DNA from: Candidatus Gottesmanbacteria bacterium
Lineage (GTDB): Bacteria > Patescibacteriota > Microgenomatia > 2-02-FULL-39-11
Direction of reading: 5' to 3'
DNA length: 60,063 nucleotides
Assembly (NCBI GenBank): GCA_016195685.1
Contig: JACPZE010000026.1
Location: 1-60,063, forward strand
Positions 39,263 to 47,009 of this stretch are shown here, in pieces. The first letter of the stretch is position 1. Each line of letters begins with the position of its first letter. The position numbers and the translations under genes are program-made. The notes under the pieces were generated by a model. It worked only from the letters and a program-made list of their open reading frames with translations, ran no database searches and was not told where the DNA came from.

Positions 39263-41632
39263 CTAAACTTTCGATCTTTTCAGAAGTAGGGAATTAGATA
39301 CTACTGATATTGAAGAAGTAGCCATCGCAAGAGAAGCAAACATAGGATTTAAAAGTATTCCCCAGATAGGATAAAGGATTCCCATTGCTATAGGAATAAG
39401 TACTACATTATAAGCAAAAGCCCAAAATAGATTGAATTTAATAGTTCGCATAGTTTTTTTGGAAAGATTTATCGCTATAGCTACGGATTTCAATTCTTTA
39501 TTTATAAGTGTAATATCCGCCGCCTCGATAGCTACATCAGTCCCGCTACCCATGGCAATTCCTACATCGGCGGAAGCAAGTGCAGGTGCATCATTTATAC
39601 CGTCACCGACAAAAGCAATTACATTTTTAGATTTTAATTTACGGGTCCTGCCGCTCAGGTATCCCAAGCGACGATACATCTCCGCTTGGGACCCCTCCTT
39701 CGCGTCACCCGTAGTTAAAATTATTGTTTTATCTCTTAAATTCTGCACGATTTTCTCTTTCTCCTGAGGTAAAACTTCAGCAAAAACCTTATCTTTATCT
39801 ATTCCTGCAAGTTTTCCTATAGCTTGGGCTGTTTGAGTATTGTCTCCTGTGACCATATAAACATCGATTTTCATCTTCTTGAGTGTATTTACGGCCTCTC
39901 TTGCATCGGGTTTAAGAGTATCGGCTATAGCAAAGAGAGCAACATTTTTCTTATTGATAGCTACATAGGCTAAAGTTTTTCCTTCTTTAGCCCACAGATT
40001 TGCTTTTTTATCCAGTTCACTGCAACGCATGACTTTTTCCTTTTCCATAAGCTTCTTATTACCCACAAGAATATTGACTCCATCTGCCCTTCCTTGTATT
40101 CCATGTCCTTCAATTGCATAAACTTTATCAGTTTTTAATTCCCTGGCTTTATTTTTTAAATATTCAATGATAGCAAAAGATAATGAGTGCTCTGAGTGTT
40201 TTTCCAGAGAATAGATTAATGAAGAAATATAATCGTGAATTGATAAATTATTAGGGATATTAATACCTAAGTCAGTCCCAACATCATCAAGCTTTTCCAT
40301 GAAAGAGAAATCAGTGACTTTGGGTTTTCCGGATGTCAAAGTACCGGTTTTGTCAAAAATAACAGCGTTTATCTTATGTGCAAGTTCCAGACTTTCAGCA
40401 TCTTTAATAAGTATTCCATGTTGGGCACCTAATCCTGTTCCTACCATAATTGCAGTAGGGGTAGCCAGACCCATCGCACAGGGACAGGCAATGATCAAAA
40501 CTGCAATAGCATTAAGCATGGCAAATAGAAAAACAGGTGTTGGACCAAAAATGTACCATACAACGAAAGTAAAAATGGCCAGCATAATCACAATTGGTAC
40601 AAAGTAAGAAGATATTATATCTGCAATTCGTTGTATTGGCGCTTTACTTCCTTGGGCTTCTTGGACGAGCTTAATTATCTGGGCGAGCATGGTGTCGCTT
40701 CCGATTTTAGTTGCCTTGAAAGTAAAAGAGCCTGTTTTATTGATAGTTGCCCCAATTACGTTATCTTCTTTACCTTTCTCAACGGGAATACTTTCTCCGG
40801 TAACCATGGATTCATCGATCGATGATTGGCCTTCAATAATAATTCCGTCAACTGGAATTTTTTCTCCGGGACGAACGCGGATCAAATCTCCGATCATAAC
40901 TTCTTCTATCGGAATATCAATTTCTTTACCGTTTCGAATTACTCGAGCTGTTTTTGCCTGAAGGCCTATCAATTTCTTAATCGCTTCAGATGTTCCGGCT
41001 TTTGCCCGCGCTTCTAAATATCGGCCCAAGAGTATTAGAGAGATTATGATGGTGGCTACGTCGAAGTAGGGAAGGGGTTCTATACCGGTATTTTTTATAA
41101 ACTGTGGTAAAAAAGTTACAAATACCGAGTATCCATAGGCTACAGTAGTACCGAAGGCAACCAATGTATCCATGTTGGCAGTTCGATGACGTAGGGCTGG
41201 AATTGTAGCGCGGTAAAAGATGGAGCCGATCCAAAACTGGACAGGAGTAGCCAAAAATAATTGGAAGTAGAAATTTTTTAGGATAAATGGTGCAGTATCC
41301 ATGAGTCCCGGGAAGCTGCCCCAAAGTATAAGTCCTCCAATAATCAGGCTGAAAATTACTTTATCCCGTAATTCAATTAATTCCTTTTTCTTTTCTAACT
41401 CTTCCGAAGACTTATTATTTTCTTCAGCTAGTATCGCTTTATAACCGACATTCACAACTGCCGTTTCCAGATCAATATCTTTGACTTTTTGAGGATCGAT
41501 AGTAACTGTAGCTTTCTCGGTAGCTAGATTGACGTTGGCATCTGTGACACCAGCTACTCTCCCTAAGGATTTCTCCAATACTCTAACGCACGATGCGCAA
41601 TGCATGCCTTTGATGGTAAAAATTTTTTTCAC
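39263..41632 (-). CDS. copA: P1B-type copper-translocating ATPase carrying a repeat-derived insertion
   Basis: GMHCASC, TGES, CPC, DKTGT, GDGIND, YN; ~30-aa insert before NVIAFVGDG. Confidence 0.95.
39642..39711. repeat. family A palindromic element in frame inside copA
   Basis: 62/70 identical to the intergenic copy at 43540-43609. Confidence 0.92.
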
Positions 41633-41639
41633 ATTCGCT

Positions 41640-41683
41640 CCCTTCGTTCCTCAGGATAAACCCTTCGGTTGCTCAGTGTAAAC
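41640..41683. repeat. two tandem family C REP-like units
   Basis: cccttcgttcctcaggataaac then cccttcggttgctcagtgtaaac. Confidence 0.75.
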
Positions 41684-41689
41684 ATATTT

Positions 41690-42043
41690 TTATTTAACAA
41701 TAATTTTTCCATGAAACATACTCATACCGCAGGAGAAGGGGAACGTACCAGTTGATTTAGGCGTTATGACAACGCTTACTTTTTCATTCAGCGGCAGATA
41801 TTTTTTAATCTTAAACTCCGGTAAAATTACTTCCTCAAGACAAGAATTCTGGTCTTTTCTTATAAAATTTAGAGTCGTGGCTTGGTTTTGTTTCAATGCT
41901 ATATTGGAAGGATTATATCCGCCGTCAACTGTAATATCTATTTCATCTTTTGCCTCTACAGCTTCCTCTTTTTTGCCAAAGAAAAACCAGTAGGTGAAAA
42001 TTACTCCAATCAAACCGGTTATTATAACGATGAATTTATCCAT
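41690..42043 (-). CDS. membrane-anchored cupredoxin (CupA-like)
   Basis: TM helix, GGYNP, SCLEEV, FSCGMSM. Confidence 0.88.
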   Translation of the reverse strand: MDKFIVIITGLIGVIFTYWFFFGKKEEAVEAKDEIDITVDGGYNPSNIALKQNQATTLNFIRKDQNSCLEEVILPEFKIKKYLPLNEKVSVVITPKSTGTFPFSCGMSMFHGKIIVK

Positions 42044-42308
42044 TTTTTTGCGATTTTTTAAATACTGCCATCACTTCATCTATGACTTCTTTTGAGTTTC
42101 CCTTCTTGATGGCATCAACGACACATGTATTTAAATGATTATTAAGAACCAATGAATCAATTTCCTTCAGCGCAGCTTCTACCGCTTGTAGTTGATGAAG
42201 TACATCTATACAGTAAACATCTCTCTCTACCATTTCCCGGACTTTTTTCAGATGTCCTTCGGTGATCTGCAGTCTTCTGATAATTGATGATCTATTACCA
42301 TTTCTCAT
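42036..42308 (-). CDS. csoR: CsoR-family copper-sensing repressor
   Basis: RLQITEGHL, YCIDVLHQ, NHLNTCV (Cys-His-Cys ligands). Confidence 0.9.
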   Translation of the reverse strand: MRNGNRSSIIRRLQITEGHLKKVREMVERDVYCIDVLHQLQAVEAALKEIDSLVLNNHLNTCVVDAIKKGNSKEVIDEVMAVFKKSQKNG

Positions 42309-42400: not shown

Positions 42401-42715
42401 ATGAATTATCTTATCTGGTTATTTATTTTCGTTTGGATCCCTACAATAGTTCTTTGGACATTTAAATTCCCACTACTTTGGAGATACAAAAAAACCCTTC
42501 TTTATGCCATGATTTTTGCTGTTGTATTTAGTTTCCCCTGGGATGTTATCGCTATACATCTCCGTATCTGGTACTTCCCGAATGGGAAAAATCTAGGAAT
42601 AAAAATATTTGAAGTGCCTTTGGAGGAATTGTTATTTATGATGACGGTGACATTATTGATAGGTTCAATCACCATATTACTTAAATATAAAAAGGACTAT
42701 AAAAGAGGGGATTAA
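42401..42715 (+). CDS. lycopene-cyclase-domain membrane protein (CrtYc/d-like)
   Basis: PWDVIAI..RIWYF..LGIKI..VPLEELLF. Confidence 0.8.
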   Translation: MNYLIWLFIFVWIPTIVLWTFKFPLLWRYKKTLLYAMIFAVVFSFPWDVIAIHLRIWYFPNGKNLGIKIFEVPLEELLFMMTVTLLIGSITILLKYKKDYKRGD

Positions 42716-42717
42716 TA

Positions 42718-43122
42718 ATGGTGAATATACAATTTGCATATCTTATATCTATAATGATTTTTGCCGGATTTCCATTAATACTGGAAATAATTTTTGGATA
42801 TCATTTGATTAAACAATTTTTGAGAAAATTGTTTGTTCCAATTATTATTGCTTTAATTCTTACCCCAATTTTGGAAAATGTAGCTTTCTTTTTAGACGTA
42901 TGGCATTTTAATCCTGAGAGAAATTTAAAAATAGTAATATTTGGGGATGTTTTGGAGACTTATATTTTTGCAGTTTTGGTTTTATCGGCAGTTTATTTTG
43001 CTGTCTGTTCCTGGACTTTTTATGAAGATAGGGGTAAACCGATTATAAGAACGAGTCTTTATGATTTATTCCATGGGACTTATGCGATTTGGAGAAAAAA
43101 TAAGACTTCAAAATGTAAATAA
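42718..43122 (+). CDS. second, degenerate lycopene-cyclase-domain membrane protein
   Basis: Same topology (LENVAF..DVWHFNP..LKI..DVLETYIF); PxEE motif altered. Confidence 0.55.
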   Translation: MVNIQFAYLISIMIFAGFPLILEIIFGYHLIKQFLRKLFVPIIIALILTPILENVAFFLDVWHFNPERNLKIVIFGDVLETYIFAVLVLSAVYFAVCSWTFYEDRGKPIIRTSLYDLFHGTYAIWRKNKTSKCK

Positions 43123-43191
43123 CTACTTTTCAAAAGGATCATTTTCTGATAATATTCAATTATGAATTCAATAAAGTAAAAGAGGGATTAT

Positions 43192-43515
43192 ATGTCAGAC
43201 GTTACAGTTACTGATTCCACATTTGATACAGAAGTCGTTAAATCCACTACACCAGTATTAGTTGATTTCTGGGCAGTTTGGTGCGGACCATGCCGTATGC
43301 AGGATCCGATTCTTGAAGAAATTATAAAAGAGTACAAGGGGAAAGTGAAAATTACGAAGTTAAATGTAGATGAGAATCCACAGTCAGCAGCAAAATATGG
43401 AGTTATGAGTATCCCCACATTGCTACTTTTCAAAAATGGAGAGATAGTCAAACAGATGATAGGGGTGCAGAGTAAAGAGACGTTGGTAGAGGAATTTAAA
43501 AAAGTTGTGAGTTAA
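43192..43515 (+). CDS. trxA: thioredoxin
   Basis: [17 protein letters not shown]. Confidence 0.96.
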
Positions 43516-43539
43516 TATTTAAGCTCGCATTATGATTTA

Positions 43540-43609
43540 CGGGTCCTGCCGCTCGGGTATCCCATACTACGATACATCTCCGTCTGGGATCCCTCCCTCG
43601 CGTCACCCG
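43540..43609. repeat. family A palindromic element (intergenic), followed by a degenerate heptamer run at 43627-43680
   Basis: 62/70 identical to the copA copy. Confidence 0.92.
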
Positions 43610-43682
43610 TTGTTAAAACTAATGTTTGAAAATTAAGCATTGTAAATTCATTAAAAATTGAAAATTTAAAATTAAAAATTGT

Positions 43683-44630
43683 GTGAATATGTACGACATA
43701 ATTATTCTCGGTTCCGGCCCTGCAGGACTCACTGCTGGAATTTATGCAATACGGGCGGGGCATAAAACTCTGCTTATTCCCGGCATCCGCTGGGGTGGGC
43801 AACTCATGTTGACAACACTGGTTGAAAACTATCCTGGATTTGTAGATGGTATCCAAGGACCAGATCTGATGATGGATATGCGTAAACAGGCAGAAAGGCT
43901 TGGAGTAGAGTTTTTGAATACTGATTTTACCCAGGCAGATTTTTCATCAAAACCCTTTAAAATTACTGCAGATGGGAAAGTTTATGAGGCAAAGTCGGTG
44001 ATTATCGCCACCGGTGCAGACAGTATTTGGTTAAATATCCCAGGTGAGATGCAACTGAGGGGAAGAGGAGTATCTACTTGTGCTGTATGCGATGCGTTTT
44101 TCTTCAAAGGGCGCGATACAGTGGTTGTAGGAGGAGGGGACAGCGCTATGGAAGATGCATTGGTCCTCTCTAAGGTAGCAAAATCGGTAACCATAATTCA
44201 CAGGCGTGATAAATTCCGCGCCTCCAAAGCGATGCAGGATAGAGTTTTTAAAGAAGCAAAAATTAAAGTTTTATGGAATAAAACAGTCATCAAATATATA
44301 GGTACGGATCATGTTGCCGGAATAATTTTAAAGGATATTCAAACAGGCAAAGAGGAAGAATTTAAAACAGATGGAGTATTTTTAGCAATTGGACATAAAC
44401 CCAATACGGAAAAGTTTGTGGGGTTAGAATTGGATAGTAAAGGATATATAGTCAGAAAAGAAATAAAAGATGAGTCAGGACTCCTGGGGTATAGAACGGG
44501 AACGAGTGTTCCTGGTGTATTTGTGGGGGGAGACGTACATGATTACCGTTACAAACAGGCGATTACAGCAGCAGGTTTTGGCTGCATGGCGGCTCTAGAC
44601 GCGGACCGATGGCTCCAGGAAAATAAATAA
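43683..44630 (+). CDS. trxB: thioredoxin reductase
   Basis: GSGPAG, CAVCD, GGGDSA, GDV..Y.QAITAAG; ATG at 43689 is the likely start. Confidence 0.95.
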   Translation: MNMYDIIILGSGPAGLTAGIYAIRAGHKTLLIPGIRWGGQLMLTTLVENYPGFVDGIQGPDLMMDMRKQAERLGVEFLNTDFTQADFSSKPFKITADGKVYEAKSVIIATGADSIWLNIPGEMQLRGRGVSTCAVCDAFFFKGRDTVVVGGGDSAMEDALVLSKVAKSVTIIHRRDKFRASKAMQDRVFKEAKIKVLWNKTVIKYIGTDHVAGIILKDIQTGKEEEFKTDGVFLAIGHKPNTEKFVGLELDSKGYIVRKEIKDESGLLGYRTGTSVPGVFVGGDVHDYRYKQAITAAGFGCMAALDADRWLQENK

Positions 44631-44650
44631 TCTTCTTCATAAACATGTAG

Positions 44651-44679
44651 TTGACAAAGCATTTTAAATGTTTTAATAT
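44651..44679 (+). promoter_or_regulatory. sigma70-type promoter
   Basis: TTGACA-17-TAATAT. Confidence 0.65.
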
Positions 44680-44685
44680 AAGTGA

Positions 44686-44763
44686 TGTATATCACACAAA
44701 GTTGTGTGAACAAGACTGAGAAGTCTTCCAACGGTCTGAGGAGACCAGAGGGAGATTTTTTTT
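44686..44763 (+). ncRNA. candidate structured RNA: three hairpins, twin UGAG(A/G)A loops, alternative terminator
   Basis: tcacaca-aagt-tgtgtga, agac-tgagaa-gtct, ggtc-tgagga-gacc; gtcttcc can instead pair with gggagat ahead of T8. Confidence 0.5.
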
Positions 44764-44823
44764 ATGCAATTTGGTATGTATTTAAAGAAATTTTTTCGCA
44801 TCGTACTTTGGATTCTTTTTTAA
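44764..44823 (+). CDS. candidate 19-aa small ORF MQFGMYLKKFFRIVLWILF
   Basis: ATG follows GAGGGAG plus a T tract; may be a relic or not translated. Confidence 0.3.
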   Translation: MQFGMYLKKFFRIVLWILF

Positions 44824-44870
44824 GAAATAAATGTCTTCTTCTGTCCTAAGACTGTCTTTTCTATTGGTCG

Positions 44871-44899
44871 TTGACCATTAAATCTAAAGTTGCTAAACT
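44871..44899 (+). promoter_or_regulatory. promoter of the ser operon
   Basis: TTGACC-17-TAAACT with extended -10 TG. Confidence 0.75.
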
Positions 44900-44905
44900 A
44901 GTGGA

Positions 44906-45119
44906 CAAATTATAAAGACGTATAATACCGAATTCCATCGGTAGAGTCGCTTTACGAAAATCCCGCTCAGCGGGAATTAAGTAAAGCCGGGTATTCCCGT
45001 TACAGAAGAAATAAGAAAGTAATCAGAAATAACTGATTATTTAATTTAGGTGGTACCACGGAAGATAACTTTCGTCCTGAAATTCCGAGTTTTATCGTCG
45101 GAAAGTAAGGACTTTTTTT
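44906..45119 (+). promoter_or_regulatory. T-box riboswitch (ser) with an ultrashort stem I
   Basis: T-box aatttaggTGGTaccacg 45043-45060 with 3' strand ttcgtcct; AGTA 44980-44983; F-box CCCGTTA 44996-45002; hairpin taccga-atTCCa-tcggta 44926-44943; terminator gtcct...aggac plus T7 abutting the ATG. Confidence 0.87.
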
Positions 45120-47009
45120 ATGGATAAAACATATTTCATCATCGATTTTGACAGTACTTTTGTACAGGTAGAGACGCTGGAAGTTTTAGCAGAAGTTGCT
45201 CTTTTGAAAAACCCGAAGAGAGATTTCATATTGGAAAAAATAAGAAAGATAACAGAGCAGGGGATGAATGGTAAGATCAGTTACGAGAAATCATTGGGAG
45301 AAAGGTTGAAATTATTTCAAGCCAGCCAAAAAAATGTGGATGATCTGGTAAAGATATTGAAAAAGAAGATCACTCCATCCATAACGCGCAATAAAGAGTT
45401 TTTCAAAAAATATAAAGACAAGATATATATCATTTCCGGCGGATTTAAGGAATACATGGTACCACTTTTTAAAACTTTCAAGATAGAAAAAGATCATATT
45501 TTGGCTAATAATTTTATTTTTGACAAAAAAGGTTACATCGTGGGTGTTGATAAAAAAAATCCCCTGTCTCATGCCAGAGGCAAAGCGGCAATAATAAAGT
45601 CATTGCAGCTTAAAGGTAAAATTTATGTGATCGGTGATGGCTACACAGATTATGAAATCAAAAAAGCAGGACTCGCAGATAAATTTTTTGTCTTTCACGA
45701 AAATGTGAAAAGAGAAGCTGTAATCGGTAAGGCAGATCATCTTTTGCCGAACTTCGATGAATTTTTGTACCAGTTGGATTTGCCAAGGGCGTATTCTTAT
45801 CCCAAAAGTAAAATAAAAGTATTATTGTTGGAAAATATCCATAAAAATGCTTTTGAAATATTTCAAAAGGAAGGATATCAAGTGGAGTCACTAACTGGCT
45901 CTTTTGACGAGGAAGAACTAATAAGGAAACTCCAAGATGTAAATATAGTCGGCATAGGATCCAGAACGCAGATTAGCAAAAAAGTGATAGAGGAGGTTCC
46001 TAGACTTCTATCTGTAGCAAGATTTGGAATAGGAGTAAATAACATAGATCTGAAAACCTGTGCTGGGGCTGGTGTTGCGGTATTTAACGCACCATATAGT
46101 AATACTCGCAGTGTGGTGGAATTAGCATTGGGTGAGATAATCATGCTTTACAGGCGTGTTTTTGAAAAAAGCGATAAGCTACATCGCGGAATTTGGGATA
46201 AATCCGCCAAAAATTGTCATGAATTGAGAGGTAAGAAACTTGGTATCGTGGGTTATGGAAACATCGGGTCACAAATTTCTGTACTAGCTGAGATGCTGGG
46301 AATGGAGGTATATTTTTATGATATTTTGGAGAGATTGCCTCTTGGAAAAGCAATAGTCTGTACTTCTTTAAATGAGCTTTTGCGAATTTCAGATGTCATA
46401 AGTATCCATGTAGATGGTAGACGTGAAAACACAAACCTTATTGGCGAGAAAGAATTTAAGTTTATGAAAGATGGAGTCTTGTTTATAAATACCAGCCGGG
46501 GGTCGGTAGTAGATTTAGAGGCATTAGCGAAGTTTGTAAAAAGTGGCAAAGTGTTGGGTGTTGCATTGGATGTTTTCCCCAAAGAACCCAAAAGTAACGA
46601 TGAGAAGTTTGTCTCGATAATCCAAGGGTTGCCGAATGTTATACTCACGCCTCATATAGGCGGCAGATCAGAGGAAGCCCAGGCAGATATGGGTAAGTTT
46701 GTGCCAGAGAAAGTTATAAGTTTTATCAACACTGGTAATACTACATTGAGTCTTAATTTTCCCAACTTGCAACTGCCGCAGCTTAGAAACGCCCATAGAC
46801 TTATACATATACATCATAACGTGCCGGGAGTTTTGGCAAAGATAAACAATGTTTTAGCTGCGAATAAGATTAATATCGAGGGGCAGTACTTAAAAACTAA
46901 TGAGGAGATAGGATATGTGATTACCGATGTCGATAAGTCCTACGACAAGGATGTTTTACAAAAATTACGCCAGATTCCCGAAACAATCAAATTCAGGGTT
47001 TTATATTGA
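45120..47009 (+). CDS. serA: phosphoglycerate dehydrogenase with an N-terminal HAD phosphatase (SerB-SerA-ACT fusion)
   Basis: DFDST, ISGG and GDGYTD HAD motifs; GYGNIG, NTSRG, TPHIGG; C-terminal ACT domain HHNVPGVL. Confidence 0.92.
   Translation: MDKTYFIIDFDSTFVQVETLEVLAEVALLKNPKRDFILEKIRKITEQGMNGKISYEKSLGERLKLFQASQKNVDDLVKILKKKITPSITRNKEFFKKYKDKIYIISGGFKEYMVPLFKTFKIEKDHILANNFIFDKKGYIVGVDKKNPLSHARGKAAIIKSLQLKGKIYVIGDGYTDYEIKKAGLADKFFVFHENVKREAVIGKADHLLPNFDEFLYQLDLPRAYSYPKSKIKVLLLENIHKNAFEIFQKEGYQVESLTGSFDEEELIRKLQDVNIVGIGSRTQISKKVIEEVPRLLSVARFGIGVNNIDLKTCAGAGVAVFNAPYSNTRSVVELALGEIIMLYRRVFEKSDKLHRGIWDKSAKNCHELRGKKLGIVGYGNIGSQISVLAEMLGMEVYFYDILERLPLGKAIVCTSLNELLRISDVISIHVDGRRENTNLIGEKEFKFMKDGVLFINTSRGSVVDLEALAKFVKSGKVLGVALDVFPKEPKSNDEKFVSIIQGLPNVILTPHIGGRSEEAQADMGKFVPEKVISFINTGNTTLSLNFPNLQLPQLRNAHRLIHIHHNVPGVLAKINNVLAANKINIEGQYLKTNEEIGYVITDVDKSYDKDVLQKLRQIPETIKFRVLY

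Follow-up and report, generated by a model that had tools for sequence, protein, structure and literature searches.

Leader RNAs targeted by ANTAR-domain proteins carry two mini-hairpins with hexanucleotide loops, in which A at loop position 1 (A1), G at loop position 4 (G4) and the base pairs at the apex of the stem are sequence-specific, and in which the second hairpin, P2, overlaps an intrinsic terminator (PMC3369931, PMC8934654, PMC8164766). Matches to this target have already been reported in front of genes for ammonium transporters, for PII and for enzymes of glutamate, glutamine and arginine synthesis (PMC3369931), and the surveys of the target that we consulted cover Firmicutes, Proteobacteria and Actinobacteria (PMC8164766). 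The natural spacing of the two hairpins in the eut leaders is 5-12 nt, and spacings of 3 nt or 14 nt impaired induction (PMC3369931). GAF-ANTAR proteins were uncharacterised as of 2012 (PMC3369931).

We report an element of this kind at positions 44651-44823 of the + strand of a 60,063-nt stretch of DNA (hereafter the window) from Candidatus Gottesmanbacteria bacterium (assembly GCA_016195685.1, contig JACPZE010000026.1). Very probably, the element is an ANTAR-type antitermination leader that has been orphaned by the loss of amtB. In common with the EutV/eut (Enterococcus), NasR/nasF and AmiR/amiE leaders it has two mini-hairpins, each with a 6-nt loop that carries G4 and is closed by AC/GU apex pairs (A1 being present in the first loop), its P2 hairpin shares a 3' arm with an intrinsic terminator and termination would be the default. 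As for known ANTAR targets (PMC3369931), the genes concerned belong to nitrogen metabolism and include ammonium transporters, and an ANTAR-domain gene adjoins many of the copies. Unlike the known systems, the host here is a CPR/Patescibacteria lineage, the P1-P2 linker is very short, a third G4 hexaloop is frequent and the window copy is without a gene. What appears to be new is an ANTAR-target leader in the CPR phylum, the kind of RNA and its ammonium-transporter targets being known already (PMC3369931); our literature search found no paper linking ANTAR to CPR/Patescibacteria.

Architecture of the element

An earlier note on this DNA had described a promoter, three hairpins, an alternative terminator ending in U8 and a 19-codon ORF, and all of these are present (Table 1). 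The promoter is the best + strand match within 43000-46000, though the match alone is within chance, since 9 promoter-like sites were found in the scan against 9.1 expected for this AT-rich region; TTGACA-17-TAnnAT is nevertheless conserved, at an equal distance, in homologous leaders. The segment GAAGUCUUCC (44720-44729) can pair with GGGAGAUUUU (44750-44759) and thereby enclose the third hairpin. The GUCU of P2 falls within GAAGUCUUCC, such that the 3' arm of P2 is shared with the 5' arm of the terminator and the two folds are mutually exclusive, which bears out the proposal of a promoter-driven leader with alternative antiterminator and terminator. As RNA, positions 44686-44770 fold at -30.9 kcal/mol (RNAfold; z = -5.2), an energy that none of 200 shuffles equalled, into P1 and a long terminator that is tipped by hairpin 3; in P1, A1 can also pair with U6, and RNAfold consequently draws a tetraloop. 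The terminator alone contributes -18.9 kcal/mol, against -1.8 for P2. A simple terminator scan missed it because of the internal loop and tip hairpin.

Table 1. Features of the leader element and its flanking sequences, numbered by position in the window
Feature	Position	Strand	Remarks
trxB (thioredoxin reductase)	43683..44630	+	Upstream neighbour; order in relatives trx, trxB, leader, amtB
Sigma-70-type promoter TTGACA-17-TAATAT	44651..44679	+	TTGACA 44651-44656, TAATAT 44674-44679; 10/12 match
P1 hairpin UCACAC-AAAGUU-GUGUGA	44692..44709	+	Hexaloop 44698-44703, A1 and G4
P2 antiterminator hairpin AGAC-UGAGAA-GUCU	44713..44726	+	Hexaloop 44717-44722, G4 present, U not A at position 1
P3 terminator tip hairpin GGUC-UGAGGA-GACC	44733..44746	+	Third G4 hexaloop; hairpin 3 of the earlier note
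Intrinsic terminator	44720..44763	+	Lower stem GAAGUCUUCC/GGGAGAUUUU, 3x3 internal loop, tip hairpin, U8 44756-44763
19-codon ORF MQFGMYLKKFFRIVLWILF	44764..44823	+	ATG 44764, TAA to 44823; downstream of the terminator

Set against the published ANTAR targets, the window copy has two tandem hexaloop stem-loops (P1 AAAGUU, P2 UGAGAA) with G4 in both (AAAG, UGAG), the overlap between the 3' arm of P2 and the 5' arm of the terminator, and the apex pairs, which are A-U then C-G in the eut leaders and here give AC-loop-GU in P1 as in P2. The A1 feature is found in P1, P2 having U1; U1 also occurs in P2 of one relative in which amtB is intact (L066; homologous loci are given by number). The linker between the hairpins is 3 nt (ACA), compared with 5-12 nt in the eut leaders, a spacing requirement that is known for EutV only. 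The element, which the earlier note had thought might be new, therefore matches a known family, the published ANTAR dual-hexaloop target (PMC3369931, PMC8934654).

The searches of Rfam found no ANTAR-target family there, and no Rfam family reached its gathering score in the whole window. At E values up to 10 (44500-45250), the only model to touch the element was the JA04 sRNA, below threshold; this identity was rejected (the match, driven by the U-run, has 25.6 bits where the gathering score is 81).

Homologous leaders and genomic setting

Upstream of the element lie genes for a lycopene-cyclase-like protein, an unknown protein, thioredoxin and trxB, the last of which is 83-84% identical to its counterparts in Candidatus Gottesmanbacteria MAGs (CPR/Patescibacteria); downstream there are a T-box leader and then a serB/serA fusion, serC and serS. 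The window is present, as DNA, in four groundwater metagenomes. In related Candidatus Gottesmanbacteria loci (L031, L063, L064/65 and L066; genes assigned by Pfam) the same module, consisting of TTGACA-17-TAnnAT, P1, AGAC-NNNGAA-GUCUYC and the terminator, stands directly upstream of amtB. The L064 contig is collinear with 42401-44650 of the window, a stretch that runs from the gene for the lycopene-cyclase-like protein, by way of trx and trxB, as far as the leader, and beyond the leader amtB is found in L064 only; there is no amtB anywhere in the 60-kb window, and the amtB-less join was confirmed on independent contigs from four groundwater samples. Because the collinear relative has amtB, the window is without it and the four samples agree, we conclude from gene order that amtB has been lost or deleted in the window genome, leaving its promoter, leader and terminator orphaned. 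The suggestion of the earlier note that the element had lost its gene is thereby upheld, relatives carrying amtB directly after the same leader.

The 19-codon ORF has no significant similarity to anything. A stretch in common with the amtB of L031 (TTTGGATTCTT) gave a first impression that the ORF was a remnant of amtB, which was unsupported: local DNA alignments of the ORF with four amtB 5' regions scored 22-24, against shuffle null maxima of 29-32, and a tblastn search with the AmtB N-terminus found nothing in the window. Since the similarity is no better than that of shuffles, the loss of amtB is claimed from synteny only. In the glnA leader L165, UUUUUUUUAUGCA can likewise be read after the terminator, where there is no gene. 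The ORF is probably fortuitous or a decayed remnant and not a conserved gene; the micropeptide gene that had been proposed is not conserved. Attenuation by a leader peptide was likewise discarded, the ORF sitting after the terminator, not before it, and lacking conservation.

Several other features of these loci were observed. None of the amtB genes of L031, L063, L064 and L066 is followed by a gene for glnK/PII, the usual partner of amtB, and the amtB of L067-L069 (P0008, 74% identical) has no ANTAR leader, with AGATTTG repeated four times in tandem about 175 nt upstream of its start codon. A copper-handling cluster on the minus strand of the window (39263-42308) comprises genes for a P-type ATPase that contains an HMA domain, for a cupredoxin-like protein and for a metal-sensing repressor of the CsoR type. 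The T-box leader (44871-45119) matches the Rfam T-box model with 69.2 bits (E 7.5e-15), under the gathering score of 93 because its Stem I is reduced to a single 6-bp hairpin, UACCGA-AUUCCA-UCGGUA, whose loop carries the Ser codon UCC followed by A. It has a promoter-like site of its own, TTGACC-17-TAAACT (44871-44899), and a terminator, GUCCU...AGGAC-U7, that runs up to the ATG. With its ultrashort Stem I, this terminator-type T-box of a CPR bacterium may merit attention of its own.

The family was collected by scanning metagenome contigs for the exact pattern AGACNNNGAAGTCTYC followed, after 13-43 nt, by GAYTTTTTT, which gave 86 loci, about half of them with the full architecture; together with separately found amtB- and GAF-ANTAR-anchored leaders they make up 41 distinct full leaders. 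The downstream genes are glnA (13 loci), amtB, the glutamine-dependent NAD synthase nadE, a sigma-70-like gene and a small ORF, and the search for homologues that the earlier note had recommended thus points to amtB in relatives and glnA in many metagenome contigs. Aligning the full leaders with MAFFT broke up the 3' arm of P1, and an ungapped alignment of 16-mers and a seed of 7 equal-length leaders were used instead.

The stem and G4 of P2 are fixed by the scan pattern, and the covariation statistics accordingly cover P1. Among 34 distinct sequences, 95.9% of the P1 cells are paired, compared with 65% after shuffling, with double changes at 5/5 pairs, figures in which the inner pairs are partly paired by construction, P1 having been located by a hairpin search. 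When the longest upstream hairpin was picked blind to loop sequence, its loop was of 6 nt in 30/41 leaders, with G4 in 29 of these 30; a hexaloop with both A1 and G4 was found in 27/41 leaders against 0.9% of shuffles. The apex pairs of P1 are AC/GU or GC/GC across the family. In each of the 41 leaders the fold consists of P1 and the terminator, whose 5' arm overlaps the 3' arm of P2, and the median energies are -19.2 (terminator), -6.5 (P1) and -2.3 kcal/mol (P2). The AGAC-NNNGAA-GUCU core recurs in leaders that were found independently of the pattern (L156, L163 and L168, with variants in L160 and L165), in which the 5' arm of P2 reads AGAC, GGAC or CGAC and G4 of P2 is also present. Position 1 of the P2 loop is mostly A, often G and occasionally U across the 41 leaders. 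The P1-P2 linker ranges over 0-12 nt in the family, most amtB/glnA leaders having 0-5 nt. When 7 other loci were used to seed a covariance model, with the window left out, the model matched 44693-44728 (27 bits, E ~4e-4) and nothing else in the window; this score is among the lowest, and is the lowest for the amtB-type leaders.

The twin loops described in the earlier note were those of hairpins 2 and 3. Both hairpins are present, but the conserved hexaloop pair is formed by hairpins 1 and 2. Hairpin 3 is a variable terminator tip, yet more than noise in the amtB/glnA subgroup: 12/19 amtB/glnA leaders have a G4 hexaloop mini-hairpin (3-4 bp) inside the terminator, where shuffles lead one to expect 2.5, and 7 have one with A1 and G4 (0.7 expected), counts that come from related sequences and hence do not represent independent events. 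The P2-P3 linker is 4-6 nt. Among the other 22 leaders such a G4 hexaloop shows no enrichment, and L165 and L168 are without the third hexaloop.

Further variations on the arrangement were noted. In L083 (4701-4746), L112, L131, L139, L140 and L081 the leader precedes a protein of about 175 aa that resembles sigma-70 region 2 (weak Pfam match). L083 has a 35%-identical GAF-ANTAR paralogue immediately before the leader, and L112 and L139 have one at a greater distance from it, which suggests a sigma factor under ANTAR control. L099, L130, L144, L148 and some 15 similar high-GC soil contigs have a conserved ORF of 60-74 aa (MVLIKVQWDAYNRQFKLLDRELA...) after the leader, without a Pfam match. In L093, L104, L106, L110, L113 and L146 a second element (~...GAC-AACGAC-GUC...) about 20-40 nt past the first terminator suggests tandem ANTAR sites, an arrangement reportedly found in Desulfotomaculum.

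The GAF-ANTAR regulator and a proposed mechanism

Directly upstream of the leader and on the same strand, a GAF-ANTAR gene was found in at least 11 loci by tblastn and context look-ups (the leaders so adjoined are L151, L072, L088, L073, L071, L090, L121, L120, L079/L107, L156-159, L160, L163/164, L165/166 and L168), the usual gene order being murT, gatD, GAF-ANTAR, leader, glnA. The protein of L151, of 240 aa, ends 44 nt before the motif and has Pfam GAF and ANTAR domains (PF03861, 59 bits); Candidatus Gottesmanbacteria RBG_13_37_7 encodes an identical protein, and close homologues occur in many Gottesmanbacteria. Regulator and two targets are present in one genome, the related MAG GCA_016204905.1, where contig JACQJU010000055 carries GAF-ANTAR, leader and glnA (L165) and contig JACQJU010000058 carries trxB, leader and amtB (L063). 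The 60-kb window contains no ANTAR gene according to two crude regex scans and a tblastn search with the L151 protein. The Gottesmanbacteria locus L161 (2501-3700; also L162) has a GAF-ANTAR gene in the murT-gatD context that is not followed by a leader or glnA, their place in L161 being taken by an unrelated ORF of 114 aa (cut); this may be another case of regulon erosion.

The ANTAR part of the regulator matches EutV, Rv1626 and NasR, and its GAF part is most similar, among solved structures, to the GAF domains of PtsP/EI-Ntr (3ci6, 3trc). [quoted passage not shown] A one-component GAF-ANTAR protein of this type differs from the known regulators, which are REC-, NIT- or AmiC-controlled. A protein-binding attenuator, one of the possibilities raised in the earlier note, is predicted to be the most likely function, from the match to the ANTAR motif and the adjoining GAF-ANTAR genes.

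We propose the following mechanism. Transcription would start about 7 nt past TAATAT, and P1 would form first in the nascent RNA, to be followed by either P2 or the much stronger terminator, both of which use the GUCUUC segment. In the absence of protein, transcripts would terminate at U8 by default; we expect read-through to need protein because P2 is worth about -2 kcal/mol and the terminator about -19. Under nitrogen limitation, a GAF-ANTAR dimer, whose gene would lie elsewhere in the genome, would bind the hexaloops and keep P2 closed, so blocking the lower stem of the terminator and allowing the polymerase to read into amtB or glnA. The third hexaloop would be compatible with both folds and could help the dimer to hold P2. 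To judge from the amtB and glnA genes that follow it there, the leader is probably a nitrogen-limitation switch in the relatives. Our analysis shows the structure with its conservation and covariation, the gene contexts, the adjoining GAF-ANTAR gene and the absence of amtB; we infer that a protein binds, which ligand is sensed, in which direction regulation runs and whether the orphan copy is still active.

Alternative readings and biological meaning

A small-molecule riboswitch that senses a nitrogen metabolite directly was the leading idea of the earlier note. The terminator/antiterminator architecture, the position upstream of nitrogen genes in relatives and the lack of a match to any Rfam family would all suit it, but the conserved part amounts to only two or three mini-hairpins, the bases conserved outside the P2/terminator segment being those at positions 1 and 4 of the loops and those of the apex pairs, and there is no aptamer-sized core, junction or pocket, P2 alone being worth about -2 kcal/mol. 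The ANTAR motif match and the adjoining GAF-ANTAR gene suffice without a ligand-binding RNA, and we consider such a riboswitch very improbable. Glutamine riboswitches (glnA RNA, RF01739, and Downstream-peptide, RF01704) are similarly placed upstream of nitrogen-assimilation genes and sometimes have a short ORF after them; unlike them, the element has no three-stem junction or pseudoknot and follows a protein-dependent logic, and neither Rfam model matches within 44500-45250 at E values up to 10. The analogy that had been drawn with T-loops and guanidine-II (mini-ykkC) RNAs, which also have two small hairpins with similar loops, fails in the same way: no Rfam match appears even at E up to 10, and the ACGR tetraloops of guanidine-II are absent, AAAGUU, UGAGAA and UGAGGA being hexaloops with G4. 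It is likewise very improbable that we are dealing with a plain intrinsic terminator of trxB, accompanied by a promoter and extra hairpins that arose by chance. This is the first strong terminator past the trxB stop codon, 90 nt downstream, and may also stop trxB transcripts, and promoter-like hexamers are no commoner than chance in this AT-rich region; yet P1 covaries, and the module of promoter, P1, P2 and terminator recurs after unrelated genes (GAF-ANTAR, lapA-like and others) and before nitrogen genes. Support is thus poor for a riboswitch that responds to a small molecule, for a plain trxB terminator and for a micropeptide gene alike.

The remaining alternatives concern the fate of the orphan copy. 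The leader could still be functional, either as a decoy sRNA of about 80 nt that titrates the GAF-ANTAR protein or as a nitrogen-gated promoter that feeds the T-box-serBA-serC-serS operon. The promoter, P1, P2, P3, terminator and U8 are intact in spite of the loss of amtB, the next genes are on the same strand with no terminator predicted by a simple scan from 44764 to the T-box, and an sRNA with ANTAR sites that sequesters EutV is known (EutX/Rli55; PMC8934654). As a stand-alone transcript that has a promoter and terminator to itself and carries ANTAR-type hexaloops, EutX/Rli55 resembles the window copy; it is, though, a long sRNA that includes a B12 riboswitch and is proven to sequester EutV, whereas a decoy role here is only a possibility. 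Against continued function stand the promoter-like site of the T-box itself, the score of the window copy, which as the lowest of its type is consistent with early decay, and the fact that we found no further orphan copy; that the element is intact could be explained just as well by a recent deletion, and we regard a functional orphan as decidedly unlikely. Also unlikely is a fuller version in which the family is a three-hexaloop ANTAR variant read by a one-component GAF-ANTAR glutamine sensor and the gene-less copy is a working RNA of about 80 nt, titrating the regulator or adding nitrogen control to the T-box serine operon.

Read as an ANTAR-type leader that has lost amtB, the window copy shows how, in nature, a regulatory leader can persist after its gene has gone. 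The recurrent third hexaloop in the terminator bears on the current debate as to whether hexaloops are read singly by ANTAR dimers (PMC8934654). In this CPR lineage, whose genome is very small and of whose regulation almost nothing is known, the GAF-ANTAR protein, the glnA and amtB leaders and their conserved promoter would together make up a compact nitrogen regulon.
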